DNA of 64,000 nt, taken from the NCBI GenBank assembly GCA_022573815.1, contig JACZTG010000006.1:62119-126118 (forward strand), in the 5' to 3' direction. This stretch comes from Fidelibacterota bacterium (GTDB taxonomy: Bacteria; Fidelibacterota; SORT01). Positions within the stretch are counted from its first letter, which is position 1, and every line of letters begins with the position of its first letter. The notes under the pieces were generated by a model, which was given only the letters and a program-made list of their open reading frames with translations, made no database searches and was not told the origin of the DNA. Positions 1 to 55,808 of the stretch are shown here, piece after piece. The position numbers and the translations under genes were made by a program.

Positions 1-184
1 TATCAGTCATTCGAAGAATAATTGCATTAACCAGATTCCTAAGAACTACTTTTTTATCATCCTCTAATTCTTGAACGACCTTGGAATTGTACATAAGCTT
101 CTCCAGACCAAATAACGTTTCGGGTGTCTGGGAAATTAAAGGTTTCAGGATTTCCTTTGCTTTAGTAACAAGTGCTGAATCCAT
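1..184 (-). CDS. hypothetical protein, N-terminal fragment (gene runs off the window edge)
   Basis: Minus-strand ATG at 184-182 with AGGAG about 5 nt upstream. The frame stays open to position 1 (MDSALVTKAKEILKPLISQTPETLFGLEKLMYNSKVVQELEDDKKVV...). No family recognised. Confidence 0.4.
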   Translation of the reverse strand, partial: MDSALVTKAKEILKPLISQTPETLFGLEKLMYNSKVVQELEDDKKVVLRNLVNAIILRMTD

Positions 185-591: not shown

Positions 592-1914
592 ATGTTGGAC
601 CAATACAGATATAAAGCCAAAGACATTCGAGGGAAAGTCCTTATTGGTTATGTAGAAGCCAAGAATAAAAAGGAAGCTAAAACTCAAGCTGAATCCATCG
701 CTCGAAAAAGAAGGCTTCAGGTAGTAACAATTGAGAAAAAAGTAAAATTCCTTTACCGCACAAGGCGCGGTACTCAGGAAATTCAAACCGGGGAGCAGCT
801 CGCTTACAGCAAAGAAGAGCTTCAGGCAGCGCTCGAAAAGCTCGGTTTTAAAGTACTTAAAGTTCAGAAAAAACTTTTTGATTTTAAAGGATCTGTCCCC
901 TCCGCAGAGATCGCTTCATGGATCAGACTTTGCGCGGACTTGCTGAAAGAAAACCTTCCGTATGACGAAATATTGAACTTATTGGGAGAGGACACTCCAA
1001 ACAAGCGTCTTCGTGAAGTGATAAAAGAGATAAGTAAAGACCTTAAAGAGGGAAAAGATGGAAAAGAAGTGTTCGGAAAGCACGAGGACGTCTTCGGAAA
1101 ATTCCCGGCATTTATGTTGGCTGTAGCCTCCACAAGCGGTAATATGGCGGAAGTTTATGAGAGTACCGCCAAGTTTATGCAGCGTGACGAGGATTTTAAA
1201 CGAAATCTTAAAAAAGCGTTATTGACGCCGTTAATAACTCTCGGTGTCATAGGTTTTGTGGTCGGTTACTATGTAATGGTCATCTTCCCCGAAACAGCCG
1301 GCATTTTCAGAAAATTCGGGAAAACATTGCCTCCTATGACCACGGCAACTCTTAAGCTCAGTGATTTTCTACAGGAAAATTGGATGTTGGTTTTATTCAT
1401 GATATTAGCGCCAATTATATCATTTGTATTTTTTATCAAGACTCCAAAGGGAGGTCTCTGGCTCGATAAACACATCATCCATTTACCTATTATGGGTGAA
1501 TTAATCCATAAGATGAGCATAGAGATTTTCGCTCGCGTTTTTTACTCTCTTTACAGCGGCTCGGGAGAGAATATAGAAGTAATAAGAATTGCTTCGGAGG
1601 CGTGTAGAAACAGATATATGGAAAAACAGATGAAGGAGGTGGGAATTCCAATGATGCTTGCGGAAGGTAAGGGCATTGTGGAAGCCATGGAAGGCACAGG
1701 TGTCTTTACTACCACCGCCATTTCCCGGTTCCGGTCAGGAGCTGAATCGGGCTCGCTGCGTTCAAATGCCCTTCAGCTGGCGAACTATTATGAAACCGAG
1801 ACAAGCTACCGAATGGAAAAAGCCATTAGTATGATAGATTTGATGGTCACAATGATCATCATGGTAGTTATGGTAGGATTGACTATTGTTTCTGCCGAAA
1901 CTTCAATTATGTGA
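592..1914 (+). CDS. pilC: type IV pilus / type II secretion platform protein, PilC/GspF family
   Basis: 440 aa. Soluble N-terminus typical of PilC (YRYKAKDIRGKVLIGYVEAKNKKEA), two T2SS-F type repeats, and hydrophobic helices after each repeat. Confidence 0.85.
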   Translation: MLDQYRYKAKDIRGKVLIGYVEAKNKKEAKTQAESIARKRRLQVVTIEKKVKFLYRTRRGTQEIQTGEQLAYSKEELQAALEKLGFKVLKVQKKLFDFKGSVPSAEIASWIRLCADLLKENLPYDEILNLLGEDTPNKRLREVIKEISKDLKEGKDGKEVFGKHEDVFGKFPAFMLAVASTSGNMAEVYESTAKFMQRDEDFKRNLKKALLTPLITLGVIGFVVGYYVMVIFPETAGIFRKFGKTLPPMTTATLKLSDFLQENWMLVLFMILAPIISFVFFIKTPKGGLWLDKHIIHLPIMGELIHKMSIEIFARVFYSLYSGSGENIEVIRIASEACRNRYMEKQMKEVGIPMMLAEGKGIVEAMEGTGVFTTTAISRFRSGAESGSLRSNALQLANYYETETSYRMEKAISMIDLMVTMIIMVVMVGLTIVSAETSIM

Positions 1915-1919
1915 TATTC

Positions 1920-2465
1920 TTAGTGCTGTTTAATCAGCTGACGTTCTAATTCAATAACCTTTTTATTTGTGGCAATAAGTTTTCTTCTTAAAATTTCCAT
2001 CAGGTTCATCATATAAATATCAAAAAGTTTTTGTCCGTTCCTACCGAAAAAGTCCTTTAGAATATCTCGTGTATATCTGAGTAAACGGGCAGGTTTCTCT
2101 ACTCTGACTGACGCTATCCGGTAGTGATCTCTAAACAAAATCAACTCACCGAACACATCACCCTTTTCTAAGGTGGCCATCTTGATATCCTGGCTGTAAA
2201 TTGATACGGAGCCTTCACATATGAGAAACATATCTGTTCCTACCTGACCTTCTTTCATAATATTTTCATGCAGTTCATATTTTTCGTCGAATCCCGCAGC
2301 AAGGAATTTTTTTGCTATGTCAGGCGGAAAATGAGCAAGCAATAACGGCGGTTTTTGAAAATACAGCAGCGTACCCGTGTGCTGCGACCAAACACTCAGC
2401 GAATTTTCTTTTATCTTCTCATTGTTTTCTATAGCTTTTCCATTATCTGAATTTGTTTTTATCAA
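1920..2465 (-). CDS. cyclic nucleotide-binding (CAP effector) domain protein without an HTH
   Basis: 181 aa with a cNMP-binding signature (GDVFGELILFRDHYRIASVRVEKPARLL). No DNA-binding domain follows. Last gene of the pilin-pilB operon (4-nt gap to the upstream gene). Confidence 0.75.
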   Translation of the reverse strand: MIKTNSDNGKAIENNEKIKENSLSVWSQHTGTLLYFQKPPLLLAHFPPDIAKKFLAAGFDEKYELHENIMKEGQVGTDMFLICEGSVSIYSQDIKMATLEKGDVFGELILFRDHYRIASVRVEKPARLLRYTRDILKDFFGRNGQKLFDIYMMNLMEILRRKLIATNKKVIELERQLIKQH

Positions 2466-2469
2466 TTTA

Positions 2470-3024
2470 TTAACCCGCTAAGTTTTTAGGTGAAAATCTT
2501 CCTTCCCAACGCGCTTCTCCGTAAGTAGTATCAAACGGAATCATAGTCTGAACGGTGAAGGCAATTCTAATTGAACGTACATTCGCCGGGACAGCTGTCA
2601 CAGTACCATTAGCCGCATAATAAGATAAATTCCAGGTCGTCATTCCTAATGCCACATCACTTGCCGTTCCATTTACATCTCTGTAAAGATAACGGTCATT
2701 TGGGTTATCGGTGTATGACGGCTCGGACGTAGGTCCAAGATAAAAGCCTACGGTGTCCACAACGCCATCATCATCCACGTCACCTAAAAATTCTATAGTC
2801 GTACTGGTCATAGTTCTTATGATTGTCGTACCTGAAGCGACTTTATAACCCATTTTCCGAAAATCATAATCAAGTATACTCACTATAACGGTGACGTTTT
2901 CCTGGGCGTTAGTCCCAAGGGAATTCATAGTCGCGGTTTCCATGATCTCGGTATTTAATGCAAGAATGGACAATAGTAGCATACCGCCGATAAGAAAAGA
3001 GCCTGCCATTTCAATATCTGGCAT
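2470..3024 (-). CDS. leaderless minor pilin-like protein (PilW/GspJ-like C-terminal region)
   Basis: 184 aa. The N-terminus MPDIE-MAGSFLIGGMLLLSILAL has Glu at residue 5 followed by a hydrophobic helix. The C-terminal beta-rich part resembles PilW/GspJ (VRSIRIAFTVQT). An in-frame TAA lies 1 codon upstream. An alternative ATG exists at 3009. Confidence 0.5.
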   Translation of the reverse strand: MPDIEMAGSFLIGGMLLLSILALNTEIMETATMNSLGTNAQENVTVIVSILDYDFRKMGYKVASGTTIIRTMTSTTIEFLGDVDDDGVVDTVGFYLGPTSEPSYTDNPNDRYLYRDVNGTASDVALGMTTWNLSYYAANGTVTAVPANVRSIRIAFTVQTMIPFDTTYGEARWEGRFSPKNLAG

Positions 3025-3027
3025 AAT

Positions 3028-3531
3028 TTACTCCCTTATAAATGAATAAACATAACTCAGACGAATAGCATTGGGTAAATAATCGCTGGTTAATGTTAAA
3101 TTCATTCTTTTTAATGTGGTTTGGGATGCCGAAAAAGTCACAAGGTCGGCTGATGTCACATAACCTACGGTACAGGCGATGGCATACGTCCACCCCCTCT
3201 TTTCGGTGCCCGTTGTATCAATAATAGTCAAGCCATGAAAGTCATCTATATCATTATAAAGGGGATAGTCTTCTCCCCCATCTTCGCCAAGGTTTCCGGG
3301 CGCTGTAAATCCTCCCGGAACAGAAGCTGGAATCATGGATACTGAATTTTCATCAAACGCTTTTAATCCTGCGTCAGATATCACTTCCTGCAAAAGTGAA
3401 ATAGCCGTAATCTCGAATTCACTTTCGAGGACCCTGCTGCTATTTTCAAGGAGTGCTCTGTTCACTGTAAGCGAAAACCACCCGAATATTGAAAGAGCTG
3501 CAAGTACTAATAATAGTTCTGCTTTACCCAT
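3028..3531 (-). CDS. leaderless minor pilin-like protein
   Basis: 167 aa. The N-terminus MGKAE-LLLVLAALSIFGWF lines up with a mature pilin FTLIE-LLIVVAII. An in-frame TAG sits immediately upstream of the ATG. An AAGGAAA SD is present, and the gene starts 9 nt after the pilB stop. Confidence 0.5.
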   Translation of the reverse strand: MGKAELLLVLAALSIFGWFSLTVNRALLENSSRVLESEFEITAISLLQEVISDAGLKAFDENSVSMIPASVPGGFTAPGNLGEDGGEDYPLYNDIDDFHGLTIIDTTGTEKRGWTYAIACTVGYVTSADLVTFSASQTTLKRMNLTLTSDYLPNAIRLSYVYSFIRE

Positions 3532-3540
3532 CTATTTCCT

Positions 3541-5313
3541 TTAATCATCAACCGTTATCGCTGCAATTTCGTCAACGGATGTTATTCCTTCTTTTATTCG
3601 ATTTATACCTGAAAATCTAAGCGTCAGCATACCGTCTTTGATGCCCTGTTCCAATATTGCTTTTTCGTTTATATCCTCACCTGACGCAACAATTATCTCC
3701 CGGAGTTCTTTTGTAAAATATAGCCCCTCCATTATCGCTGTTCTGCCTTTATAGCCGTTACGACATTTATTGCAGCCCACCGGTTGAAATAAATTCTTTT
3801 CAGTCTCCAGCTCTTCATCGGTAAAACCAAGTTTCTTGGCGAAAGTCTTTGTCTCATCATTCATTGGAATTTTACACTCATTACACAACCTTCTCACAAG
3901 TCGTTGAGCCATAATTATATTTACAGAATATGCTATAAGGAATGGCTCTACCCCCATCTTAAAAAGCCTGGAAATGGCGCTTGGAGCATCATTGGTATGA
4001 AGTGTCGAAAAAGTTAAATGCCCGGTATTTGCTAATTTAATTGCGATTTCAGCCGTTTTCTTATCCCTGATCTCACCCACAAGAACGATATCAGGATCGT
4101 GCCTCAAAATAGCGCGCATTGCTAAATCAAAGCCCATTTTGTCGCTAATTTTTAATTGACGCGCGCCCTTGATAAGATATTCAACAGGTTCTTCTACGGT
4201 CAAGACGCAAACTTCAGGAGTAATTACCGCATACAGCGCTGCTATTAGAGTTGTGCTTTTCCCGCTGCCTGTAGGTCCTGTTACAATGATAATTCCGGAA
4301 GGTTTGCTGATCGCTTTATGGAAATCTTCGCTTGCTTTTGGCTGAAGGCCAAGTTTTTTTAAATCTGTAACAACCTTTCTGTCATCAAGTATTCTGATAA
4401 CCACACTTTCAAACTTCCGGTCGAATTCTTGTCCTACAATAGGAATAAGTGACACACGATACCGAATCAGATAATCATCAACACTGCGCTGAATAAATCC
4501 ATCCTGTGCCATATCGCGTTCAAATCGGTCAACATTGCGAGTTTTATCTTTGAAAACCGCGATGATTGCTTCGGGTTTGACCCCTTTTTGCGTATGCCAG
4601 ACCGATAGTTTTCCATCAATTCTAAACAAAAAATCAGTTGTCGTTGATGAACTCGGGATTATATGAATATCACTTGCATCCTGCCTTACAGCCTCAACGA
4701 GAACGCCTTCAACCAATGCCGTTAAAGCGCTTTGATTGATTTCGGCGTCTAATGCGGACTCATCAACTTCCTCGTCCTCTCCTTGCTCTTCTTCATCATA
4801 ATCAATCTCATCAAGAATACCGAGAAAATCGTTCAACCCTGAAAGTATCTTACTTATTAATTCCTCTACGGATTCTTTCTTAGTGTAGGCAATTTCATAA
4901 TTGCGATAATTCAATTGCTCCACTATCCCCTGTAAACTCGGGTCAGTCGGGTCGGCGGCAATAAGAGTTAATATTCCTTCCCCGTTAGTACGCTCAAATT
5001 TTAACGGCAACATCTTCGCGCGAATCATAGAGGTTCTGTTATCATCGCTCATTTCCTCTAAAAATCCCTTAATAAACTCATACTGTTCTTCAGGGATCTC
5101 ATCAACCGTAACTTGGACTTCCTTTATAGCATATAGAGAGGTTAGAGCTTGTAGAACCTTATGCCTGTCTACATCCAAATCCTCATAAAGAACTTCCCCG
5201 ATTCTTCTTCGGTCATTTTGAGGTTCTTTAGATTGAATTTCTAAGGCTTGCTTGAGAAGCTCTTCCGTAATAATGCCTTTCTGTACCAGAACATCTCCAA
5301 TACGTAAAGCCAT
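3541..5313 (-). CDS. pilB: type IV pilus assembly ATPase, PilB/GspE/MshE family, with an N-terminal T2SSE_N/MshEN-like domain
   Basis: 590 aa. Walker A GPTGSGKSTT, Asp and His boxes, and a tetracysteine cluster (CNECK...CNKCRNGY). The N-terminus RIGDVLVQKGIITEELLKQALEIQ matches the MshEN 24-residue motif. Confidence 0.9.
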   Translation of the reverse strand: MALRIGDVLVQKGIITEELLKQALEIQSKEPQNDRRRIGEVLYEDLDVDRHKVLQALTSLYAIKEVQVTVDEIPEEQYEFIKGFLEEMSDDNRTSMIRAKMLPLKFERTNGEGILTLIAADPTDPSLQGIVEQLNYRNYEIAYTKKESVEELISKILSGLNDFLGILDEIDYDEEEQGEDEEVDESALDAEINQSALTALVEGVLVEAVRQDASDIHIIPSSSTTTDFLFRIDGKLSVWHTQKGVKPEAIIAVFKDKTRNVDRFERDMAQDGFIQRSVDDYLIRYRVSLIPIVGQEFDRKFESVVIRILDDRKVVTDLKKLGLQPKASEDFHKAISKPSGIIIVTGPTGSGKSTTLIAALYAVITPEVCVLTVEEPVEYLIKGARQLKISDKMGFDLAMRAILRHDPDIVLVGEIRDKKTAEIAIKLANTGHLTFSTLHTNDAPSAISRLFKMGVEPFLIAYSVNIIMAQRLVRRLCNECKIPMNDETKTFAKKLGFTDEELETEKNLFQPVGCNKCRNGYKGRTAIMEGLYFTKELREIIVASGEDINEKAILEQGIKDGMLTLRFSGINRIKEGITSVDEIAAITVDD

Positions 5314-5463
5314 CTGCTAATTGCCTCCTTTTTCCGCGATAATAGTTGCCCGAGAGAGGACTGAAAGTCTGAGGGTTTGCTCTTTTTTCTTCATTGAAAA
5401 ACTACTTCAGGCGCCTTGCTGTTATAACATTGCGCCTCATCAATATTTAATTCTTTTAATATT

Positions 5464-5498
5464 TGCGGGTAGCTGCAATAATCATGGTACTACCCGCA
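5464..5498 (-). terminator. stem-loop between the pilin-like gene and pilB (candidate attenuating terminator)
   Basis: 9-bp stem TGCGGGTAG / CTACCCGCA with a 17-nt loop, 42 nt downstream of the pilin stop, followed by an A/T-rich tract but no clean U-run. Confidence 0.35.
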
Positions 5499-5539
5499 AT
5501 ATTAGTTTGAATTAAATCAACAATGCTACCACTCAACTC

Positions 5540-5926
5540 TTACGGCAAGGTTATTGTCGGTGTACCCGAAACTCCCTGCTGAGTAATAGTGGCAACGATA
5601 ATAACGCCTTCGTTTGCGCCTGTAGCTGTAAGGACGAACGATGTGGCCGTAACACCTGACATAAGGAAATTACCGTTGGCGTTTGATGAATCAGCGCCAA
5701 AAGTTATTACATCGGTTGTTCCAACAAAGCTTCTCGCTCCACCGCCTAATGCCGCCGGTTTGCGCCAATAAGAAGCTGCTGACGATGCGACGTTATTCAC
5801 ATCCTGTAAAAGCGCGTCTCGCTCTGCGTTAACGGCGCCTGTCGTGAACATATTGATACCCACAACAACCGCAACACCAACGATAATGGTGCCGAGTACG
5901 ATTAGTAATAATTGCTGTTGTCCCAT
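5540..5926 (-). CDS. leaderless major pilin-like protein
   Basis: 128 aa. The N-terminus MGQQQLLLIVLGTIIVGVAVVVG is a pilin-type hydrophobic helix starting at Met1. A strong SD (AGGAGG) is present and an in-frame TAA lies 1 codon upstream. It has the first-gene position upstream of pilB, plus its own promoter and a downstream hairpin. Confidence 0.55.
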   Translation of the reverse strand: MGQQQLLLIVLGTIIVGVAVVVGINMFTTGAVNAERDALLQDVNNVASSAASYWRKPAALGGGARSFVGTTDVITFGADSSNANGNFLMSGVTATSFVLTATGANEGVIIVATITQQGVSGTPTITLP

Positions 5927-6049
5927 TTGTTAACCTCCTATTAATGGTTTGAGACTTTTACTTATTTTCAAAAGACTGCTATTACCTCTAATTGACTAAA
6001 GTGATTAATATTAACCAATCCAGCGGTTTTAATTGTTCATAGTCTCTTG

Positions 6050-6078
6050 ATTATACAGACTTTAGTATTATAAGTCAA
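6050..6078 (-). promoter_or_regulatory. sigma70-type promoter for the pilin-like gene
   Basis: On the minus strand: TTGACT (6078-6073), a 17-nt spacer, then TATAAT (6055-6050). This implies a 5' UTR of about 115 nt. Confidence 0.4.
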
Positions 6079-6432
6079 GCATAAATACTGCGTTTGCTGT
6101 AATAAAACACTGTCTGTATGTCGTGTAAGTCTATTAATTATTTCTTACACAAACAAATATATGCTAATTTACTATCTGATTTGTATCCTGAATCACAATT
6201 TTTAATGAATGTTACCTCCGTCACACTATTCATAATCTCTTTAATTATATTTGATTCTGAACCGCCCAATGCCTATAATAGTTTGTAGGCAGATGTCAAT
6301 GGGTGGAATATTCTAACGTGGTTGTTAGTATGTATGTTGCAGTCCTGTCTTTAAGAAACGCCTTGTATTGGCTGCTTAAATTGTATTGGACCGCGAACTA
6401 AACTGGTAAAATTAAGAATTGGAGTATGCGCC

Positions 6433-6960
6433 ATGAGTCTTAAAAAAATTTCACAGTTACTTCTTATAATATTAATAGGTCCTTTCCTACTTCCGGGAGC
6501 AATTCTCGCTCAGGATGGTGAAATCGAATACACACAATTATTCACAAGCACGGATGCTTCTCAATGGGATGTTGAAGGTTTCGTCACCCCCTCAATGGAC
6601 GACGGACTGCTCTCTTTTTTGTTTGTATTCAATGAGGATAATCCCGTCAGGTCGGTACCTGATACGATTCATTTACAATTAAAAGATCATGTAGATATTA
6701 GCAACTGCTCTACCGCTTATGTTCGGTTCAGCAAACAAGATATTCTTTTAGATGAGGATTCATGGATTGTAAGTAACATCAGGGTGTATGCAAAACACGA
6801 AAGCAGTGGTGGATGGTTCAGAGTTTATGAAGATATATCCCATCTCGCAGGATGGGTCCATAACTTGGAATTACGTTTTAGAGTTGCCGTCAGAACTGAT
6901 GATGTATATCCGGGTTCCTTCAAACTGACAAATATTCGTGTTGAAGGTGTGTGCGGATAA
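6433..6960 (+). CDS. secreted hypothetical protein
   Basis: 175 aa with a Sec-type signal peptide (LLLIILIGPFLLPGAILAQ/DGE) and a GGAG SD upstream. No family recognised. First gene of the plus-strand cluster. Confidence 0.6.
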   Translation: MSLKKISQLLLIILIGPFLLPGAILAQDGEIEYTQLFTSTDASQWDVEGFVTPSMDDGLLSFLFVFNEDNPVRSVPDTIHLQLKDHVDISNCSTAYVRFSKQDILLDEDSWIVSNIRVYAKHESSGGWFRVYEDISHLAGWVHNLELRFRVAVRTDDVYPGSFKLTNIRVEGVCG

Positions 6961-7016
6961 TGGTTTTTAGTGATTTAGTTATTGACAGTAAGGTTAATTT
7001 TTAAGCTGAAAAGATA

Positions 7017-8054
7017 ATGGGCAGAGCATCCTTATTGATAGTATTGGGATTTATCGTGATATTCGGAATGGTCCGGAGTAACATAACTAAGACCTCCGAA
7101 AACGCATCTGCTAACTCTTCAGAGTACGCCGAAACTATAATTGCTCGTAACATTGCCAACAGCGCAGCTGAGTATGGACTTTCCGTTTTTTCCAATACAG
7201 GAAATGACTCATCATATTCAAACTCTGACTTTATGGGCGGCTCTTTCACAGCTTACTTTACAGATCTCGGAGACACATTAAGATTAACCGTTACAGCTAC
7301 TTTTGAGGGTGAGAGCTATACGAATCGTATTGATATGATTTATACCATTGATTTCTTCCCGGATGCCACCGGCGGAGCGTCCATTGCTGGAGGCTCAGGA
7401 ATGATGGAGTTTGACCTTGGAGGCACAGTTTCTATAACAGGGAATGACACCAACTTTGACGGTACAGACGGCCCCGGACCCGATTTATCAGCGTTCACAC
7501 TGAGCAGTGACTTAGACAGCGCATCACTCGCTGCCGATTCCAGTTTCTTAACCGGAGACCCCCCTATTGAAGTAAGTTCGGATACAAGCGCGCTATCAGT
7601 AACCGAGCTTGTTGATTTCTATGGTACAATAGCAGATACCACACTTGCAGCGGGCACTTATAATGGAAATACTTTCGGCAGCGAGGCTAATCCTATGGTT
7701 GTTTACTGTAACGGGCATTTGGTCTTAGGGAGTGGAACTGTCGGCTATGGTATATTAGCTGTTGACGGCTCCTTAGCTATGGGCGGCAGCTCAGTCTGGT
7801 ACGGTATGGTACTGGTTAATTCAAGCGACGGTTATGATGCCTATTCCGCAAGCGGAAATCCGGCTATCTACGGTTCCTTTTCTCTTGGCACCAGTGATAC
7901 CACAACAACTTTAAGAATGACAGGAACAACGGACATCTATTACAGCACACAGGGCATAGCTGTTGCATTAACAGCGTTTAATGCCGGCATTGACGGTGTG
8001 GGCGGCGGATATGGAGCCGAAAGGACGATCAGCGAAATGATCTGGTATGAATAA
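7017..8054 (+). CDS. PilX_N-like anchored pilus-associated protein, paralog 1
   Basis: 345 aa. N-terminus MGRASLLIVLGFIVIFG (PilX N-terminal-like helix) with an in-frame TAA 4 codons upstream of the ATG. Shares motifs with the next gene (TNFDGTDGPGPDL, GYGILAVDGSL, GNPAIYGS, C-terminal IWYE). Confidence 0.6.
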   Translation: MGRASLLIVLGFIVIFGMVRSNITKTSENASANSSEYAETIIARNIANSAAEYGLSVFSNTGNDSSYSNSDFMGGSFTAYFTDLGDTLRLTVTATFEGESYTNRIDMIYTIDFFPDATGGASIAGGSGMMEFDLGGTVSITGNDTNFDGTDGPGPDLSAFTLSSDLDSASLAADSSFLTGDPPIEVSSDTSALSVTELVDFYGTIADTTLAAGTYNGNTFGSEANPMVVYCNGHLVLGSGTVGYGILAVDGSLAMGGSSVWYGMVLVNSSDGYDAYSASGNPAIYGSFSLGTSDTTTTLRMTGTTDIYYSTQGIAVALTAFNAGIDGVGGGYGAERTISEMIWYE

Positions 8055-9094
8055 TGGGTAGAGCTTCATTAATAATGGTTTTGGGATTTATCGTTATATT
8101 CGGCACTTTACGGAATAATCTCAATAAAACCGCTGAATCATCCTCTCTAAATTCCTCTGTATTTACGGAGTCCATACTTGCTCATCACGTTACCAACATC
8201 GCAGCAAATTATATTATGTCAATTCATTCTGAGACTGGTATAAGTAGCGAGGAATACAGCGACAGCAGTTTTCTTGATGGATCATACACAGCATCCATTG
8301 AATCAGTAGCTTATGATTCGATACTTGATTACGATACTCTTCTAATCAGGGTAACTGGTATTTATGAGGATGAATCTGACACTGTACGGGTTCAATTCGT
8401 CAGTAAAAGCCTTCTTGTTCCGAAGATAACCGCATCTGTGGCGATCGAGTCGGATTGTACAATCTTCGACTTTGCCGGTAATCCACAGATCCGCGGGATT
8501 GATACGAATATGGACGGCACTACAGGTCCCGGCCCCGATCTTGCCGGATTAACGCTTTCAAACAGTGATGACAGTACACGTTTTGAGACTGTTGCTTCAT
8601 CAAATCCAACCTGGGTTCAGGGCAACCCTGTGGTAGAAGTGAGTCTTGATACCCCTCTCATAGATCTCAGCGATCTTGTGGAATATTATTCAGGATTGGC
8701 TGATCTGTCTTACACCGGTGGATCCTTTAATGGAGTCAGCTGGGGCACTCAAGAAAATCCCATTATTGTTTATTCGAACGGCAATACAACTTTCGGAGGA
8801 AATTCTGTCGGATACGGAGTTCTTGCTATAAATGGATCGCTGACAATGACAGGTAATCCTACGTGGTATGGCCTTATTATAGCTTCCGGTGGCGAGTCAC
8901 TTATTATAGATGCAAGTGTCGGTAATCCCACCATTTATGGCGCTCTTCATATCGGCGCCACTGTTACCCAACTGGAGCTGAAAGGCACGGCAGATATTTT
9001 TTACAGCAGTGAAGCCATCAATATGGTACGCACAGCGCTTATTAATGGAGGAAAAGATAAAAGAATAATCACCGAGAAAATCTGGTATGAATAG
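8054..9094 (+). CDS. PilX_N-like anchored pilus-associated protein, paralog 2
   Basis: 346 aa. N-terminus MGRASLIMVLGFIVIFG. TAATG stop/start overlap with paralog 1. Shared motifs TNMDGTTGPGPDL, GYGVLAINGSL, GNPTIYGA, C-terminal IWYE. Confidence 0.6.
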   Translation: MGRASLIMVLGFIVIFGTLRNNLNKTAESSSLNSSVFTESILAHHVTNIAANYIMSIHSETGISSEEYSDSSFLDGSYTASIESVAYDSILDYDTLLIRVTGIYEDESDTVRVQFVSKSLLVPKITASVAIESDCTIFDFAGNPQIRGIDTNMDGTTGPGPDLAGLTLSNSDDSTRFETVASSNPTWVQGNPVVEVSLDTPLIDLSDLVEYYSGLADLSYTGGSFNGVSWGTQENPIIVYSNGNTTFGGNSVGYGVLAINGSLTMTGNPTWYGLIIASGGESLIIDASVGNPTIYGALHIGATVTQLELKGTADIFYSSEAINMVRTALINGGKDKRIITEKIWYE

Positions 9095-9218: not shown

Positions 9219-11720
9219 ATGAAACTATTCGTCGACAAAATAAAAATTAAATGGTTGTTGATTGCCATTCTGTTAGGAACGCTCATTATTACCCTATCCT
9301 GCGAAACCATAGTCAACGAGGCGACCATAACCGGAACAGTCATTAATGGTCAGACGTTCCAACCTCTCGTCGGGACTTTCGTCAGAGCGTTTGGATTTGC
9401 CGAATCGGCTCTCACCGACTCGGCAGGAGCCTATGAACTTCTGATTTCTATTGACCTACCCGATGTCAGTGAAGCCACACTCGAGTTTTCTAAATCCGGA
9501 TTTATAACTGATACGCTCAACAATGTAGGATTAGACATTGGCAACAGTGTTACTGCGCCACCCATTACGCTATTTCCCGTTCCAACTGCAACCACCTCAG
9601 GCACGGTTGTGATTGAAGGTAATGCTGTAAACGCTCTTACAAACGAAAATATCGAAGGCGCATTTGTCCGTGTATTGGATCATGAAAGCGATGGAACTTT
9701 AACAGATGCAAACGGACACTATGTATTAAGTTTTTCAATTGTTGTAGGGGATAGTATTTCAGTCACTGTAGAAATTTCCAAGGCAACATTTCTTCCTGAT
9801 AAAGTCACAAACGTCGCCATCTCGTTCGCTGACACGGTAAAGGTGCGTACCGCAAATCTAATTCCCATCTCCAGTGTAGGAGGCGTTGTTGCGCTTAAGG
9901 GTAAAGTAGTGAACGCTATTACCGCAGCTCCGCTGGAAGGAGCGCTCATCAGAGCTCTGAAACATCCTGAAACTACATTGAGCGACAGTTCAGGGTCTTA
10001 CATTTTATCAGTTACACTTGATCCGGGTCAAATTAATGTCCTGACTCTGGATATAAGTAAAGAATCTTTTGCTCCTGATACTCTTTCAAGTATCGGTGTA
10101 GTTGTGGGAGATACCGTGAACGCTCCGCCTGCAAGTCTTATTCCGTTAGTAATATCCCAGGGACTCGGCGGAATCAGAGGGACTGTAATTAACGGTATTA
10201 CTGAAGCTCCCATTGAAGGAGCCTTTGTAAGAACCTTGAATCATCCTGAGTCTGCGCTTACAGACGCACAAGGAAATTATGCCTTTGCGGTCAAAATTAC
10301 CGGTAATGAATCTAAAGTAATTAATCTTGAGATTATAAAACAGGGATTTTTAGCTTCCACACTTCCGAATTTAGCGTTGGTTATCGGTGATACCATCGAC
10401 GTTCCTCCAACTAATCTTCTGCCCATAGATCCGGATGGCTCAAGAGCCATAGTAAAGGGAGTCGTAGTTGATGACGTATTTTTTGATCCGATCGAAGGCG
10501 TACAGATCAGGGCTATCGGGCACGATGAAACAACGCTGTCTAATGAACTTGGTATTTTCACACTCAGCCTTGTTATAAAAATTAGCGAGAGTGACACCGT
10601 AGATCTGGTATTTTCGCATGAAGAATTTGTTACCGATTCTGCGTCCAATGTAGCATTGACGGTTGACAGTACAATAACCATAGCTGTTCAGGCGTTAACT
10701 CCGAAAAACCGAGCAGGTCCGCCTTCTAACGCTATCATCTTTAGAGTTTCTCGGACATCTATAAGTATTAAAGGTGTTGGTGGTGAAAAGGAATCTTCCG
10801 AGATTACCTTTCAGCTGCTAGATAAAAATGACACACCCCTGGATCGGTTCAAATCCGCTGTGGTCTCTTTCTCATTGTCTGGTCCCGGAGGAGGGGAATT
10901 CATTTCTCCTTTAACAGCAACTACAGATGATTCCGGTCTGGTCAGAACTACACTCAACAGCGGCACAATTGCAGGTGTTGTCCAGGTGACGGCATCTTTT
11001 GATCCGGGAACCGGATTAATTAAAGTTAAGGCACCGCTTATTTCAATACATGGCGGTCAACCCGATTCAGACCACTTCACAATTACTTCCATACTAAATA
11101 TTGCCGGATTAGTAAGTATTAGGGACGACTCTGTCAGAGTTATCGTGGGAGATAAATTTTCTAACATCGTCCGACCGGGAACTGCCGTCAGCTTCCGTAC
11201 AAGTGCCGGAGTCATACAGGGTTCGGCAGTTACAGATGAAAACGGAAAGGCCTCTGTACTACTAACCTCATCTAATCCAAAGCCATTACCCGCTGACAGC
11301 GGCTTCGTAACCATAACTGCGGAGACAAAGGACGAAAACGGGAACTCCATATTCGCGACTTCGCTTATGCTTTGGTCAGGGCTTACACAGATTCAAATGG
11401 TAGGTTTTCCTGGAACTTTTGCAATTGCTGATGCTGGTTCGCAGACCTTTACAGTAAAGGTGAGCGATGCAGAACACGGCAGGCCTCTTGAAGGAGGTAC
11501 CTCAATAGAAGTAAGTACGACCGCTGGCCAAGTAACTGGTGATATAGGAGTTACGCTGCCTGATACCCAATCGAGGGGACCAAAAACTACACTTTTCACT
11601 TTCAAAATAGTTGATAACAATCCGGGCGACATAGATCCACCTGTTCCGGCAGCAGTTACAATACTAGTTATAAGTCCGAATGGAAATGACCTTCTTACTA
11701 TAACGGGATCCGTGGATTAA
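9219..11720 (+). CDS. large surface protein with five CarboxypepD_reg-like repeats followed by bacterial Ig-like (Big_1-like) domains
   Basis: 833 aa. The N-terminal signal has a possible lipobox (IITLSC). A roughly 93-aa module recurs five times (G[TK]V[IV]N..T..P[LI]EGAF[VI]R.L.H.ES.LTD..G.Y). The C-terminal half has invasin-like Ig motifs (VSFSLSGPGGGEF...TTDDSGLVRTTLNSGTIAGVVQVTAS). Confidence 0.7.
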   Translation: MKLFVDKIKIKWLLIAILLGTLIITLSCETIVNEATITGTVINGQTFQPLVGTFVRAFGFAESALTDSAGAYELLISIDLPDVSEATLEFSKSGFITDTLNNVGLDIGNSVTAPPITLFPVPTATTSGTVVIEGNAVNALTNENIEGAFVRVLDHESDGTLTDANGHYVLSFSIVVGDSISVTVEISKATFLPDKVTNVAISFADTVKVRTANLIPISSVGGVVALKGKVVNAITAAPLEGALIRALKHPETTLSDSSGSYILSVTLDPGQINVLTLDISKESFAPDTLSSIGVVVGDTVNAPPASLIPLVISQGLGGIRGTVINGITEAPIEGAFVRTLNHPESALTDAQGNYAFAVKITGNESKVINLEIIKQGFLASTLPNLALVIGDTIDVPPTNLLPIDPDGSRAIVKGVVVDDVFFDPIEGVQIRAIGHDETTLSNELGIFTLSLVIKISESDTVDLVFSHEEFVTDSASNVALTVDSTITIAVQALTPKNRAGPPSNAIIFRVSRTSISIKGVGGEKESSEITFQLLDKNDTPLDRFKSAVVSFSLSGPGGGEFISPLTATTDDSGLVRTTLNSGTIAGVVQVTASFDPGTGLIKVKAPLISIHGGQPDSDHFTITSILNIAGLVSIRDDSVRVIVGDKFSNIVRPGTAVSFRTSAGVIQGSAVTDENGKASVLLTSSNPKPLPADSGFVTITAETKDENGNSIFATSLMLWSGLTQIQMVGFPGTFAIADAGSQTFTVKVSDAEHGRPLEGGTSIEVSTTAGQVTGDIGVTLPDTQSRGPKTTLFTFKIVDNNPGDIDPPVPAAVTILVISPNGNDLLTITGSVD
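9321..10710 (+). repeat. five tandem ~280-bp coding repeats inside the adhesin-like gene
   Basis: The protein-level modules start near aa 35, 128, 223, 318 and 410. They are diverged at the DNA level. Boundaries are approximate. Confidence 0.55.
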
Positions 11721-11734
11721 TAAGAATTTCCGCG

Positions 11735-12697
11735 TTAACGCCCGTTCTTTTTAAGCATATTCAAAATTCCGAACCGCCCCCTGCCGAACTCTTCTGATAG
11801 AAGCTGAATCGCTTTTCCTTTTAAGACAGAATTAGCGGCTAACTTATCAAATCTTTTCATTAGTTTTTTTATTTCCGCTTTTTCCCATCTTTTACTGCTG
11901 TTTATCGGACTTTTTTCATCAGGGATAGCGATGTTCTCCAAAATTCCGCCGAATTTGATGTTGTCTATCTCTTTTATCTGATGATTAAAAGCTATTTCAC
12001 TTTTTTCAAAACCTACAGCTCGTCTGCCCAGACCAAGTGCGACTTTCGCCGTTCCGAATCCGCCGAGAAAAAAGTCACACACGCTGTCCCCCTCATCAGT
12101 GCTGTATAATATTATTTTTTTCAACAGCTCTAAAGGAAGCTGGTTTTTATTTTTTACCTGACCTTTTTTATACTCCCTGTTAATGATCCATACATCTTCC
12201 CTGTCGCTGTAGTTTTTCGATTTTCCGCTTTCGTCCAGATCCTCTCTTCCGAATCGAACGAATTGATTGAATGTTCTATCTCCTCCCGGTTTTTTATAGT
12301 AAAGAATATGATAATGTGAAGATATGTACTTCTTTTTCGTATAGACTCCGAAGTTATATTTCCAGATCAGATGATTCACTTCCTCCAAAGAACTGTTTTT
12401 TAATCCGTTAAGGATGTGAATTAAATTCGTGTAACCCGATACGATATAGATACTTCCCCCCGGTCGTAAGACCCGCTCAGCCTGCTCTATCCACCTTAGG
12501 CTGAAGTCGGGATATTCATCAATCGGAACTTCAATGTATCCGTCAAGAACGTAACTCTCTTCCCTGTTATAATGCTGATGAAGCTTATCCCCTTTGATTC
12601 CATAGGGAGGATCCGTAATTATAAGGTCAATGGAATCATCTTTCAGATGTTTGATTGCGCCATCAATGCAATCTTCATTGTATAGAGAATATTTCAA
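11735..12697 (-). CDS. beta-class N6-adenine/N4-cytosine DNA methyltransferase (orphan)
   Basis: 320 aa. The DPPY catalytic motif is near the N-terminus (DLIITDPPYGIKG) and the SAM-binding FxGxG-like motif is near the C-terminus (VCDFFLGGFGTAKVA). A tail of about 70 aa follows. Confidence 0.8.
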   Translation of the reverse strand: MKYSLYNEDCIDGAIKHLKDDSIDLIITDPPYGIKGDKLHQHYNREESYVLDGYIEVPIDEYPDFSLRWIEQAERVLRPGGSIYIVSGYTNLIHILNGLKNSSLEEVNHLIWKYNFGVYTKKKYISSHYHILYYKKPGGDRTFNQFVRFGREDLDESGKSKNYSDREDVWIINREYKKGQVKNKNQLPLELLKKIILYSTDEGDSVCDFFLGGFGTAKVALGLGRRAVGFEKSEIAFNHQIKEIDNIKFGGILENIAIPDEKSPINSSKRWEKAEIKKLMKRFDKLAANSVLKGKAIQLLSEEFGRGRFGILNMLKKNGR

Positions 12698-55263: not shown

Positions 55264-55808
55264 GCGAATCGTCCCGATTTAATCACCGCTTTCAGAATCG
55301 AGGGCACGGCAATCGAAAATATAAGCGTATTTGATATTACATGAATTGATATAAACAGAGCGCCGAGAGCAATAGTAGCGAACAGCTGGTTGCCTTCGAA
55401 ACCCGCTGCCAGAGGCCATGAAAGTGTCGTAAGCAAATCAAAGAAGATTGTGCATATAAATCCCGAAACTGCAAATGCGATTATCTTGCCTTTCGAAAAG
55501 ACATTCTTATTTCCCCATCTGCCGACTAATCCGCCAACAGCCCCAAAGAGCGACATTCCCATAATTTGGGCGGCAAACAGATAAGGAAAAGCCAAACCCG
55601 AACCCATCGGATTAAACGCGGAATAGATGGTTTCTGCTATAACGCCCACAAGTATCCCTTTTGATACTCCAAGAAAATATCCCGATATGAAAATCGTAGC
55701 CGACACCATCTCGATATTCGGAACGAATATAAACGCGTATCCCATAGCAACGGCGAGAGCGGATAGCATCCCCACCATAGCCATATCTCTGGTTGATAAT
55801 TTTAACAT
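55260..55808 (-). CDS. small polytopic membrane protein resembling an ECF-transporter S component
   Basis: 182 aa with about six hydrophobic helices. An N-terminal LSTRDMAMVGMLSALAVAMGY motif resembles S components. It overlaps the downstream OMP gene by 4 nt. No ECF A or T genes are nearby. Confidence 0.45.
   Translation of the reverse strand: MLKLSTRDMAMVGMLSALAVAMGYAFIFVPNIEMVSATIFISGYFLGVSKGILVGVIAETIYSAFNPMGSGLAFPYLFAAQIMGMSLFGAVGGLVGRWGNKNVFSKGKIIAFAVSGFICTIFFDLLTTLSWPLAAGFEGNQLFATIALGALFISIHVISNTLIFSIAVPSILKAVIKSGRFA

Follow-up and report, generated by a model that had tools for sequence, protein, structure and literature searches.

A type IVa-like pilus family whose predicted pilins lack a class III leader

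To our knowledge, all described type IV filaments are built from subunits made with a cleavable leader, and the only thing that prepilin peptidases strictly require is Gly at position -1. The large competence pilin ComZ of T. thermophilus, for example, is made with a normal prepilin leader. Among the archaeal type IV pilins (EppA/PibD), the pre-sequence can be very short and the residue after the cleavage Gly can be Gln, their leaders having a charged residue before the Gly and a length of at least 3-4 residues. In the type IVa pili (T4aP) of Pseudomonas, Myxococcus, and Thermus, the system comprises PilA, PilB, PilC, PilD, PilT, and PilMNOPQ. The so-called T2SS of Bacteroidetes (Cytophaga hutchinsonii CHU_3191-3201) groups with T4aP (PMC5553014; PMC6668835), and CHU_3197 in this cluster is a Peptidase_A24 gene, while the cluster's major pseudopilin was retrieved by T2S-G queries including PF08334 (PMC5553014). 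More generally, prepilin peptidase genes often lie apart from their pilins and are shared between systems, as exemplified by the loci for MSH (mannose-sensitive haemagglutinin) pili (PMC6668835).

The locus considered here lies in a 64,000-nucleotide stretch of a Fidelibacterota contig, hereafter the window. Its components, in window coordinates, are as follows:

1-184, minus strand: PilT-like retraction ATPase, first 61 codons, running off the left window edge (matches the PilT-like protein of locus L007)
592-1914, plus strand: PilC/GspF-type inner-membrane platform protein, 440 aa (Pfam T2SSF, E 1e-31)
1920-2465, minus strand: cyclic-nucleotide-binding protein, 181 aa (Pfam cNMP_binding, E 7.6e-14)
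2470-3024, minus strand: putative minor pilin, 184 aa, placed by synteny, starting MPDIEMAGSFLIGGMLLL (MPDIEMAGSF...)
3028-3531, minus strand: predicted minor pilin, 167 aa, starting MGKAELLLVLAALSIFG (MGKAELLLVL...)
3541-5313, minus strand: PilB/GspE-type assembly ATPase, 590 aa, with an MshEN-like N-terminal region (Pfam T2SSE, E 3.5e-98)
5540-5926, minus strand: predicted major pilin, 128 aa, founding member of an unannotated family, starting MGQQQLLLIVLGTIIVG (MGQQQLLLIV...)
5934-5939, minus strand: Shine-Dalgarno AGGAGG, 7 nt 5' of the major pilin ATG (DNA read directly)
6433-6960, plus strand: 175-aa protein with a Sec-type signal peptide, 5' of the two large minor pilin genes (ORF)
7017-8054, plus strand: large minor pilin-like protein with a predicted beta-solenoid domain, 345 aa, starting MGRASLLIVLGFIVIFG (MGRASLLIVL...)
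8054-9094, plus strand: 346-aa paralogue of the 345-aa protein, starting MGRASLIMVLGFIVIFG (MGRASLIMVL...)
9219-11720, plus strand: surface protein, 833 aa, with five CarboxypepD_reg repeats and Big_1/invasin domains (Pfam)

The likeness to T4aP extends to the PilB and PilT ATPases, PilC, a secretin, and PilN/PilO-like proteins, to a major subunit with the predicted 'lollipop' fold of pilins, combining a conserved alpha-1 helix with a variable head, and to several minor pilins, a large one of the tip type among them. In contrast to T4aP, the pilins possess neither a class III leader nor the G(-1)/F(+1)/E5 motif, no pilD is found in or near the locus, and the counterparts of PilM/N and PilO can barely be recognised. 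PilB and PilC also fall under the equivalog cut-offs: the ATPase reaches 414 bits on the TIGR02538 PilB model (cut-off 675), and the platform protein matches the NCBIfam GspF and PilC models below theirs. As in MSH pili, the assembly ATPase has an MshEN-type N-terminal c-di-GMP-binding region, its score of 36.5 bits on the MshE-type c-di-GMP motif NF053729 being just under the cut-off of 38, and the locus has no prepilin peptidase gene (PMC6668835). However, MSH pilins have normal class III leaders, cut by a peptidase that the genome encodes for another system, whereas here the leader is missing. Like the T2SS of Bacteroidetes, which belong to the same superphylum, the locus encodes a divergent type IV filament system whose minor pilins and PilM/N/O-like parts are hard to recognise (PMC5553014; PMC6668835), but it lacks an A24 gene and a comparable pseudopilin and possesses PilT. 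Unlike in archaeal type IV pilins, the ATPases and platform are of the bacterial PilB/PilT/PilC type.

A preliminary description had placed a type IV filament locus at 2470-9094. While a PilB/PilC/PilT/secretin machine is indeed present, that span is too small, since the PilT-like gene lies outside it and runs past the left window edge. On the identical contigs L083-85 this gene is complete, encoding 413 aa with a T2SSE domain, and its orthologue in Melioribacter roseus scores 331 bits on the TIGR01420 PilT/PilU model (cut-off 319.1); a PilO-like protein, a TPR protein, and the secretin are encoded directly left of the window. A PilC-type gene adjoins the pilin in 56 of 80 related loci. The cyclic-nucleotide-binding gene is placed likewise in 18 related loci of Marinimicrobia and Balneolaceae, and its product is likely a regulator within the operon. 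In 17 of 80 related loci, Balneolaceae among them, a homologue of the 833-aa surface protein is encoded next to the pilin locus, and this protein is possibly associated with the pilus, by position only. The 175-aa protein matches no Pfam or NCBIfam family, and its gene occurs in only two of the 80 scanned loci (L007 and L009), both from close Marinimicrobia relatives.

The coordinates and direct reading of the DNA agree with the original claim that the five pilin-like ORFs are closely preceded by in-frame stops: TAA one codon upstream of the 184-aa gene, TAG immediately 5' of the ATG (zero codons) of the 167-aa gene, TAA one codon upstream of the 128-aa gene, TAA four codons upstream of the 345-aa gene, and TGA one codon upstream of the 346-aa gene, whose ATG overlaps the stop of the 345-aa gene (TAATG). 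No ATG, GTG, or TTG lies between the upstream stop and the start in any of them, each ORF having been called from the first start codon that follows a stop, and AGGGAG is found 6 nt 5' of the 184-aa gene start. The further claim that the hydrophobic helix begins at Met1 in all five does not hold for the 184-aa protein, where the stretch starts at about residue 9, after the acidic MPDIEMAG. An upstream stop is ordinary for one gene; its presence 0-27 codons upstream, without an alternative start, in all 109 family genes from 81 loci and the window is more than chance, and a longer leader is impossible in every one of them. Further, 83 of these 109 genes have a Shine-Dalgarno-like motif 5-9 nt upstream. 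These data effectively refute the idea that assembly errors, frameshifts, or wrong start calls in one window produced the short N-termini: although database start calls differ (P0202 has an upstream extension and P0391-393 are shorter), the same start recurs in assemblies made independently, in genomes of single cells and of isolates, and in one closed genome. Orthologues from several phyla share the leaderless start, and canonical G/FTLIE-type prepilins, which would have undermined the claim, are absent from the 1.28 Mb of loci.

The 128-aa family comprises 3,242 homologues, which at 50% identity form 1,511 clusters. Scanning reference genomes returned at least 495 matches to this MGQQQ pilin family, whose lineages are Marinimicrobia, Balneolaceae, Ignavibacteria/Melioribacteraceae, Calditrichaeota, KSB1, and Kryptonia; the complete genome of Melioribacter roseus P3M-2 carries a member (P0289). 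The usual gene order, pilin, PilC, PilB, minor pilins, PilT, PilM/N-like, PilO-like, and secretin, is kept in more than 50 loci from the six lineages, and the secretin and PilN/PilO-like proteins are found in related loci. The N-terminus of the family hardly varies: of the 137 representatives taken at 50% identity, all 137 have M1, 134 have G2, 125 have Q3, 133 have Q4, and 135 have Q5, Ala (P0175, MAQQQ) being the one substitution of Gly2 that keeps the motif, and the N-terminus is net-neutral in 109 of 110 major pilins. It had been suggested that residue 5 counted from Met1 stands in the register of Glu5 of mature pilins. The prevalence of Gln5 keeps this suggestive, but the major pilin profile aligned to Geobacter PilA places Met1 three residues upstream of the canonical +1.

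By predicted fold, the case for the 128-aa protein being a type IV pilin is strong. Its AF2 model (pLDDT 95.5) has a helix at 2-55 followed by a four-stranded sheet; Foldseek places T. thermophilus PilA4 on top (E 0.086), and the best PDB sequence-profile matches are to Geobacter PilA (E 0.06-0.09). Both are statistically weak; the sole full-length Foldseek match is a type IV pilin. Among close homologues residues 1-30 are 97.6% identical and residues 61-95 are 69.8% identical, a combination of conserved helix and hypervariable head that, at the sequence level, is a pilin-like variability pattern. The five could conceivably be ordinary N-terminally anchored bitopic membrane or periplasmic proteins encoded beside PilB and PilC, with the true pilins elsewhere: no Pfam or NCBIfam pilin model matches any of them (for the 128-aa family neither collection gives a match, including the models for pilins and pilin N-terminal methylation), the structural matches are weak, and nothing similar to the 184-aa family can be detected. 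We nevertheless consider this very improbable, as the 128-aa model is that of a textbook pilin, with a 54-residue N-terminal helix and a sheet, and its top profile and only full-length structural matches are type IV pilins. Moreover, its gene, with a strong Shine-Dalgarno motif, heads a PilC-PilB-PilT operon in over 50 loci and is often present as two or three copies in tandem; in some loci a Wzy_C O-oligosaccharyltransferase-like gene separates copies. There is also no canonical pilin nearby, and the genome paper of M. roseus, with its 2013 annotation, found neither pilA nor pilD.

The minor pilins are assigned with less assurance. For the 167-aa protein, sequence comparison gives moderate support for a pilin identity: its N-terminal 65 residues match the 345-aa family (hhalign probability 82%, E 1e-5) and residues 1-21 match residues 1-21 of the major pilin (43%). 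Its 16 orthologues align gap-free from Met1 (MGRAE, MGSRE, MNTGQ, MTTGQ), with Glu or Gln at residue 5 in 14 by the existing start calls (15 should L064 begin at an internal Met), Gly as residue 2 or residue 4, and zero net charge over the first eight residues in all 16. The 345-aa and 346-aa paralogues (43% identity) are likewise pilins at moderate confidence, here on structural modelling. The AF2 model of the former (pLDDT 79) has helices at 4-20 and 27-61 that precede a sheet and a beta-solenoid, resembling ComZ (PDB 6qvi) with its N-terminal pilin-type helix, sheet, and beta-solenoid. ComZ is the best Foldseek match by E-value (2.3e-3), but the match is weak (TM ~0.13-0.2) and without sequence similarity; ice-binding beta-solenoids are also recovered (probability 0.99), and a distant homologue has a weak match to DUF4900. 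Among the matches listed, 36 of 40 homologues start MGRA, MGKA, or MGRS, the remaining four being shorter start calls. The 184-aa protein is the weakest assignment, based only on synteny and an N-terminal hydrophobic segment, with no support from Pfam, NCBIfam, PDB, or hhalign. Its gene always follows the 167-aa gene (13 loci), and orthologues start M..(I/L)LD or MGDIQ, keeping an acidic or amide residue at position 5-8; Gly8 of the window protein is not conserved, being replaced by M, I, A, or T. The N-termini of the 184-aa and 345-aa families are not net-neutral.

As the preliminary description had it, no prepilin peptidase gene is present in the window: E. coli GspO searched against all its stop-to-stop segments (phmmer --max) gave a best E of 1, albeit as a single query with no positive control from these phyla. 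One polytopic membrane ORF that could not be placed by eye, at 55260-55808, codes for an ECF transporter S component. A24 prepilin peptidases are absent from the ~10 kb around each of the 81 loci, from the window, and from its left flank. GspO queries, Pfam searches of polytopic ORFs, and precomputed Pfam annotations around the loci revealed none, and no ORF with a G.GD.K motif occurs in the flanking loci (the motif scan left out the window).

Subunits with no leader, or only a Met-Gly leader, are supported, as the preliminary description proposed, and the choice between no cleavage and a cut after Gly2 remains undecided. In the latter case the leader would have shrunk to Met-Gly (M-x-x-G in some minor pilins), with an unlinked A24 peptidase cutting after Gly to leave Gln at +1. 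Such cleavage by a peptidase encoded elsewhere is not excluded, and we regard it as possible, if doubtful. It would account for the near-invariant Gly2 of the major pilin, with Ala as the motif-keeping substitution, for the frequency of Gly in minor pilins, including the M(F/V)G-K/R or MG-R kept in the 345-aa family, and for 167-aa homologues starting MNTG/QTLIT, near G/FTLIE; a cut after Gly2 would also leave the conserved Gly17 and Phe27 at most one residue off the canonical Gly14/Phe24 register in the alignment to Geobacter PilA, and the separate location of many peptidase genes is compatible with it. If cleaved, MG/QQQ would resemble archaeal EppA-type pilins with Gln at +1. However, a two-residue uncharged leader is shorter than any prepilin peptidase substrate that we know of, no A24 gene occurs in 1.28 Mb around the 81 loci, and pilD is reportedly absent from the annotation of the complete M. 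roseus genome. Moreover, the 184-aa family has no conserved Gly before the helix, and in the 167-aa family Gly is at 2 or 4 although the helix begins at a constant distance from Met1. As both these families are gap-free from Met1 without a conserved Gly, a constrained N-terminus fits them better than a cleaved leader.

We propose, with confidence that is evenly balanced, a type IVa-like pilus whose pilins do not need prepilin-peptidase cleavage; the absence of processing is inferred, and whole genomes were not scanned, whereas the gene content, the start sites, the predicted fold of the pilin, its conservation, and the lack of pilD near the loci are shown directly. The literature searched yielded no prior description of a leaderless pilin family, in line with the initial supposition that it was undescribed. 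The major pilin begins Met-Gly-Gln-Gln-Gln and passes directly into the hydrophobic alpha-1 helix, and the minor pilins, of three kinds (167 aa, 184 aa, and ~345 aa), begin likewise. Under the no-cleavage proposal, the residues before the helix being without net charge, there would be no charged leader to remove. The pilins would be inserted into the inner membrane via the alpha-1 helix and extracted into the filament by PilB and PilC without A24 cleavage. At most Met1 may be trimmed by the housekeeping deformylase and methionine aminopeptidase, the latter enzyme acting optimally on proteins with Gly as the second residue. This reading has no experimental data on the mature N-terminus behind it. 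The invariant Gln5 is inferred to take the polar role of Glu5 in classical pilins, a role that in the 167-aa family would fall to Glu5 paired with Lys or Arg at position 3-4. The function, too, is an inference: the pilus probably serves to adhere to particles or to twitch on them, with cyclic nucleotides or c-di-GMP exerting control.

The five pilin-like proteins of the window are encoded by open reading frames that an ORF listing recovers exactly as the preliminary description had placed them:

2470-3024, reverse strand: 184-aa putative minor pilin, starting MPDIEMAGSF
3028-3531, reverse strand: 167-aa putative minor pilin, starting MGKAELLLVL
5540-5926, reverse strand: 128-aa major pilin, starting MGQQQLLLIV
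7017-8054, forward strand: 345-aa pilin-like protein, starting MGRASLLIVL
8054-9094, forward strand: 346-aa pilin-like protein, starting MGRASLIMVL

The in-frame stops claimed to close off each gene upstream are present in the DNA at 1, 0, 1, 4 and 1 codons from the start (TAA, TAG, TAA, TAA and TGA for the 128-, 167-, 184-, 345- and 346-aa genes, respectively), and no alternative ATG, GTG or TTG lies between the stop and the called ATG in any of the five window genes. A perfect AGGAGG stands 7 nt 5' of the ATG of the 128-aa gene and an AGGGAG 6 nt 5' of that of the 184-aa gene. We rejected an internal start of the latter at Met6 (MAGSF...), since the AGGGAG serves the first ATG and M(P/G)DI(E/Q) is kept in close orthologues. 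The further proposal that the hydrophobic helix begins at Met1 in all five proteins stands except for the 184-aa protein, which is hydrophobic only from about residue 9, after the acidic MPDIEMAG.

Starting without a leader is characteristic of the family. Across 81 related loci and the window, all 109 family genes have an in-frame stop 0-27 codons upstream without an alternative in-frame start, which excludes a longer leader in every one of them, and 83 of the 109 carry a Shine-Dalgarno-like motif 5-9 nt upstream; the leaderless N-terminus and its upstream stop are thus conserved throughout the orthologous loci. Orthologues with a canonical leader, which would have counted against the preliminary description, did not come to light: no G-[FMLIV]-[ST]-L-I-E followed by a hydrophobic run occurs in 1.28 Mb of these loci or in the window. 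That the short N-termini merely reflect an artefact of assembly or start calling is very unlikely. The criterion for a class III leader (short, positively charged and ending in Gly(-1)) is unmet, as only one or two residues (Met-Gly) precede the polar/hydrophobic start, and the segment before the helix in the major pilin bears no charge.

We judged membership among the type IV pilins by the class III signal peptide, Pfam N_methyl and NCBIfam TIGR02532. None of the Pfam and NCBIfam models, these two included, matched any of the five proteins at E<1, and with no family-model match the criterion of a mature F/M-x-x-x-E5 motif is likewise unmet. The evidence for a pilin fold is structural and rests on prediction. 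Modelled by AF2 from a 47-sequence alignment, the 128-aa protein (pLDDT 95.5) is predicted to form a single helix (residues 2-55) and, after it, an antiparallel sheet of four strands, the architecture of a type IV pilin. The AF2 models of the 128-aa and the 345-aa protein satisfy the fold criterion, a long N-terminal helix (about 50 residues, hydrophobic over the first 20-25) packed on an antiparallel sheet, the helical part of the 345-aa model being in two pieces. In a Foldseek search of the PDB, the top hit and sole full-length match of the 128-aa model was PilA4 of T. thermophilus, with weak scores (E 0.086, probability 0.75), and a search of the PDB with the sequence profile of the family gave Geobacter PilA as its three best, also weak, matches (E 0.06-0.22). 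The pilin fold presumed in the preliminary description is borne out, at the level of prediction, for the 128-aa protein. A Sec signal peptide or lipoprotein was rejected for want of a positive n-region, a Cys or an AXA-like site, and the continuous helix of the model also speaks against it. Identification of the five proteins as ordinary N-terminally anchored membrane proteins, to which the lack of family-model matches might point, is very unlikely.

By its predicted fold the 128-aa protein is a pilin, and its family, so far unannotated and here named MGQQQ after its N-terminus, has 3,242 homologues in a word-indexed database and 1,511 clusters at 50% identity in an exhaustive search; one JGI entry carries the label PilE. 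Among 137 diverse representatives, chosen as those aligning from residue 1, the N-terminus is M1 (137/137), G2 (134), Q3 (125), Q4 (133), Q5 (135) and L6-L8 (about 130). The fifth residue, with Met1 as the first, is Gln instead of Glu in 135; of the window's five proteins, only the 167-aa and 184-aa ones have Glu5. Identity among 118 close homologues is 97.6% over residues 1-30 and only 69.8% over residues 61-95, a constant helix with a variable head being the usual pilin pattern. The databases hold thousands of major-pilin variants of near-identical length, each with >80% identity, and contigs of several independent assemblies end inside or at the major pilin gene (window 5540-5926, the right ends of the related contigs L083-L085, and positions 5520-5699 of locus L009 and 3400-3615 of locus L024), which points to a micro-diversity of the pilin head (residues 61-95) strong enough to break assemblies. 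The Marinimicrobia single-cell genome MT.SAG.2, from which locus L007 comes, has a second locus, L002 (10001-11024), that encodes two further MGQQQ paralogues apart from the PilB/PilC operon.

The remaining pilin-like proteins are supported to differing degrees. The 345-aa and 346-aa proteins are paralogues (43% identical), and MGRA, MGKA or MGRS is kept in 36 of the 40 homologues listed for them (38-99% identity), the other four being shorter start calls; more distant homologues, of 412-458 aa, start with MFGKG, MVGKG or MGRN. The AF2 model of the 345-aa protein (pLDDT 79) places a sheet and a beta-solenoid after helices at 4-20 and 27-61, and its Foldseek matches, all weak, are headed by the competence pilin ComZ of T. 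thermophilus (E 2.3e-3), with ice-binding solenoids next (probability 0.99). Model and matches suggest a large, tip-type minor pilin. The 167-aa family, from 16 loci, aligns without gaps from Met1 and starts with MGRAE, MGSRE, MGHRE or MGQRE, or with MNTGQ, MTTGQ, MSLGQ or MGTGQ, position 5 being Glu or Gln in 14 of the 16 proteins as called (15 if that of locus L064 starts at an internal Met). Glu5 is always paired with Lys or Arg at position 3 or 4, which leaves the first eight residues net-neutral in all 16. A PDB sequence-profile search with this family returned nothing meaningful; its first 65 residues align with the 345-aa family in hhalign (82%, E 1e-5) and its residues 1-21 with residues 1-21 of the major pilin at 43%, the 167-aa versus 345-aa comparison being the only informative one between families. 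Genes of the 184-aa family (13 loci) invariably come after the 167-aa gene, and their products have a short N-terminus in which an acidic or amide residue is conserved at 5-8, ahead of a hydrophobic stretch; the Gly in MPDIEMAG is not kept, other members having M, I, A or T. Neither hhalign between families nor a PDB sequence-profile search detected similarity of this family to anything, and the 184-aa protein is considered a pilin by context only.

These genes are embedded in the following machinery:

184-1, reverse strand: PilT-like ATPase, first 61 codons, running off the window
592-1914: PilC/GspF platform protein (T2SSF, E 1e-31)
between PilC and the small pilin-like genes: cNMP-binding protein
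3541-5313: PilB/GspE ATPase (T2SSE, E 3.5e-98)

The combination of PilB and PilC satisfies the criterion for a type IVa machine; PilB adjoins the pilin in 50 of 80 loci and PilC in 56 of 80. Both window proteins score below the NCBIfam equivalog cut-offs and are thus divergent members, and PilB has an MshE-type c-di-GMP motif just below cut-off. Identical contigs from three other assemblies (L083-85) add 10 kb to the left of the window, with the order PilT-like ATPase (the full gene, 413 aa), TPR protein (803-828 aa), 289-aa protein, secretin (416 aa), ABC transporter and sigma-70 gene. The PilT/PilU criterion is met, the orthologue of M. roseus scoring 331 bits against the TIGR01420 cut-off of 319.1. 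The secretin is clearly identified (Pfam Secretin, E 5.8e-27; also called on L081 and L083), and matches to PilN and PilO are weak (E 1e-3, below cut-off). More generally, the loci run from 1-3 pilin genes through PilC and PilB to the minor pilin genes, of 167, 184 and about 420 aa, and the cNMP-binding protein (each of these two groups missing from some loci), and then to PilT (408-414 aa), a protein of 517-538 aa weakly matching PilN, one of approximately 295 aa weakly matching PilO, and the secretin. In Marinimicrobia, the slot of the 517-538-aa PilM/N-like gene is filled by the 803-828-aa protein, whose TPR repeats are C-terminal (L083 5938-8349, reverse strand, about 1.2 kb left of the window). 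Taken together, components and gene order identify a T4aP-like, retractile machine.

A type II secretion system was rejected: Pfam and NCBIfam searches of the window and related loci gave no match to the GspG-type major pseudopilin PF08334 or to GspC/L/M, and PilT is present. The other divergent filament system of the superphylum, the Cytophaga 'T2SS', which groups with T4aP (PMC6668835), also differs, in that its cluster contains an A24 prepilin peptidase gene and its major pseudopilin is retrieved by T2S-G queries including PF08334 (PMC5553014); we therefore rejected it as the same system. The present locus is best classified as a T4aP-like machine with a new pilin family without a class III leader.

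Consistent with the earlier claim that the window encodes no prepilin peptidase, phmmer --max with E. coli GspO against all its stop-to-stop segments gave a best E of 1. A G.GD.K regular expression applied to the flanking loci, phmmer with E. coli GspO as the query and without a positive control from these phyla, Pfam applied to polytopic ORFs left unexplained, and precomputed Pfam matches (L081, L083-85) revealed no A24 peptidase to a distance of about 10 kb around the 81 loci, nor in the window or its left flank. One polytopic ORF of the window that could not be placed by eye was rejected as a candidate, being an ECF transporter S component by Pfam. A conserved four-TM protein of 131-142 aa, encoded 6-9 kb upstream of the pilin genes in 13 Balneolaceae loci (L062 727-1131, reverse strand, and 12 others; cluster 11), has neither a Pfam match nor A24-like motifs. 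Because these searches cover the flanks of the loci, the window and the left flank, and not whole genomes, absence of an A24 gene is indicated rather than demonstrated. In MSH systems, peptidase genes can be unlinked (PMC6668835).

An A24 peptidase encoded in trans could cut after Gly2, or after Gly4 between MNTG and QTLIT in the 167-aa family, a possibility that we consider distinctly less than even and still substantial. The near-invariance of the Gly favors cleavage after Gly2, as does the alignment with Geobacter PilA, in which family positions 17 and 27 correspond to the canonical Gly14 and Phe24: this is an offset of +3, which a cut after Gly2 reduces to +1. The same alignment weakens the preliminary proposal that Met1 occupies the register of Phe1. 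Conservation of Gly2 would also be explained without a prepilin peptidase, Gly at position 2 making an optimal substrate for methionine aminopeptidase. A functional N-terminus that stays uncleaved is consistent with the fixed distance between Met1 and the helix across subfamilies, with the invariance of Gln5 and with the 184-aa family, in which no Gly is conserved. Our preferred inference, on which our confidence is evenly poised and for which there are no data on the mature N-terminus, is that pilin maturation involves no prepilin-peptidase step. Cleavage and N-methylation are addressed only indirectly, by the lack of an A24 gene near the 81 loci and by the published statement on the genome of M. 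roseus, in which pilD was not found. The pilins would insert via the N-terminal helix, preceded by residues that are uncharged on net in 109 of 110 major pilins and in all of the 167-aa family, and at most Met1 would be removed, by methionine aminopeptidase. What has been shown, as distinct from this inferred mechanism, is the start sites and their conservation, the components of the machine, the predicted pilin fold and the lack of a peptidase gene nearby; these uphold the broader reading of a leaderless or minimal Met-Gly filament and do not settle the choice between the two.

The pilus probably serves adhesion or twitching on particles, an inference from the PilT and secretin, the hypervariable pilin head and signs of second-messenger control. 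The last comprise the cNMP-binding protein in the operon, the MshEN-like N-terminus of PilB and, at a distance of about 7 kb from the last pilin-like gene, a response regulator of HD-GYP type; this regulator and its neighbor could control the pilus or exopolysaccharide:

16599-19010, reverse strand: 803-aa response regulator with an HD-GYP-type HD domain and a Pro/Gln/Glu-rich linker of about 400 residues
19093-19887, reverse strand: ExeA/GspA/MshM-like AAA ATPase (TIGR03015, 214 bits, below cut-off)

Several other genes accompany the pilus loci. The window gene at 9219-11720 (forward strand) encodes a large protein that combines CarboxypepD_reg repeats with Big_1 domains; a homologue adjoins the pilin locus in 17 related loci, in Balneolaceae as well as Marinimicrobia, which hints at a functional link to the pilus, perhaps as a surface adhesin. 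Six Balneolaceae-type loci (L059 6550-8052 and five others; cluster 24) encode a 500-aa O-antigen-ligase-like Wzy_C membrane protein between the pilin copies, a placement that recalls pilin O-glycosylases, and it may be a pilin O-glycosyltransferase. Read from sequence only, a 320-aa ORF (11735-12697, reverse strand) standing alone between the pilus genes and a FliK-like gene has a DPPY motif (IITDPPYGI), presumably that typical of N6/N4 DNA methyltransferases. The FliK-like gene (12903-15722, forward strand) encodes a 939-aa protein of an otherwise unknown family whose C-terminus matches the FliK hook-length-control domain (Flg_hook, E 1.2e-11), in a window otherwise without evident flagellar genes.

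Homologue names place the source organism in Candidatus Marinimicrobia (SAR406). A scan for MGQQQLLL, with one genome per species, gave at least 495 confirmed hits; the best 80 loci are spread over Marinimicrobia, KSB1, Balneolaceae, Ignavibacteria/Melioribacteraceae, Calditrichaeota, Kryptonia and unclassified 'Bacteroidetes' MAGs. Among the Balneolaceae are isolates, namely Gracilimonas tropica DSM 19535, Gracilimonas sp. and Fodinibius sp. In the closed 3.30-Mb genome of Melioribacter roseus P3M-2, a tandem pair of MGQQQ pilin genes precedes PilC, PilB, PilT and a secretin; according to the authors of that genome, neither pilA nor pilD was found. With Melioribacter roseus, Gracilimonas tropica and Fodinibius in culture, the system is directly testable. 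Genome reports for these phyla list PilB, PilC, PilT and PilQ and no PilA or PilD, a pattern for which the MGQQQ family accounts, and the I. album genome paper leaves pili unmentioned. A profile of MGQQQLLL could end the 'incomplete' annotation of pili in abundant ocean, sediment and hypersaline bacteria.

To our knowledge, a class III leader together with a dedicated prepilin peptidase defines every type IV filament described (T4aP, T4bP, Tad, MSH, Com, T2SS and archaeal). In comparative surveys of the superfamily, the peptidase counts as an ancestral core component (PMC6668835). In the full-text literature we found no description of the MGQQQ family or of leaderless or peptidase-independent type IV pilins, in agreement with the initial impression of an undescribed system, and we consider the system of high interest to specialists. 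A widespread leader-free lineage would revise the core of the type IV filament. Removal of the leader is usually explained by the removal of charge or by the N-methyl-Phe1/Glu5 pair, and the MGQQQ system offers a natural test of both explanations. We tentatively extend the preferred inference, with slightly less than even confidence, to the whole filament branch of Marinimicrobia, Balneolales, Ignavibacteria, Calditrichia, KSB1 and Kryptonia, which would build retractile pili from pilins that are made mature and never cut by a peptidase. If this is true, type IV filament assembly does not universally require a class III signal peptide and an A24 peptidase, and the N-methyl-Phe1/Glu5 pair would have an uncharged Met/Gly-Gln-Gln-Gln N-terminus in its place.
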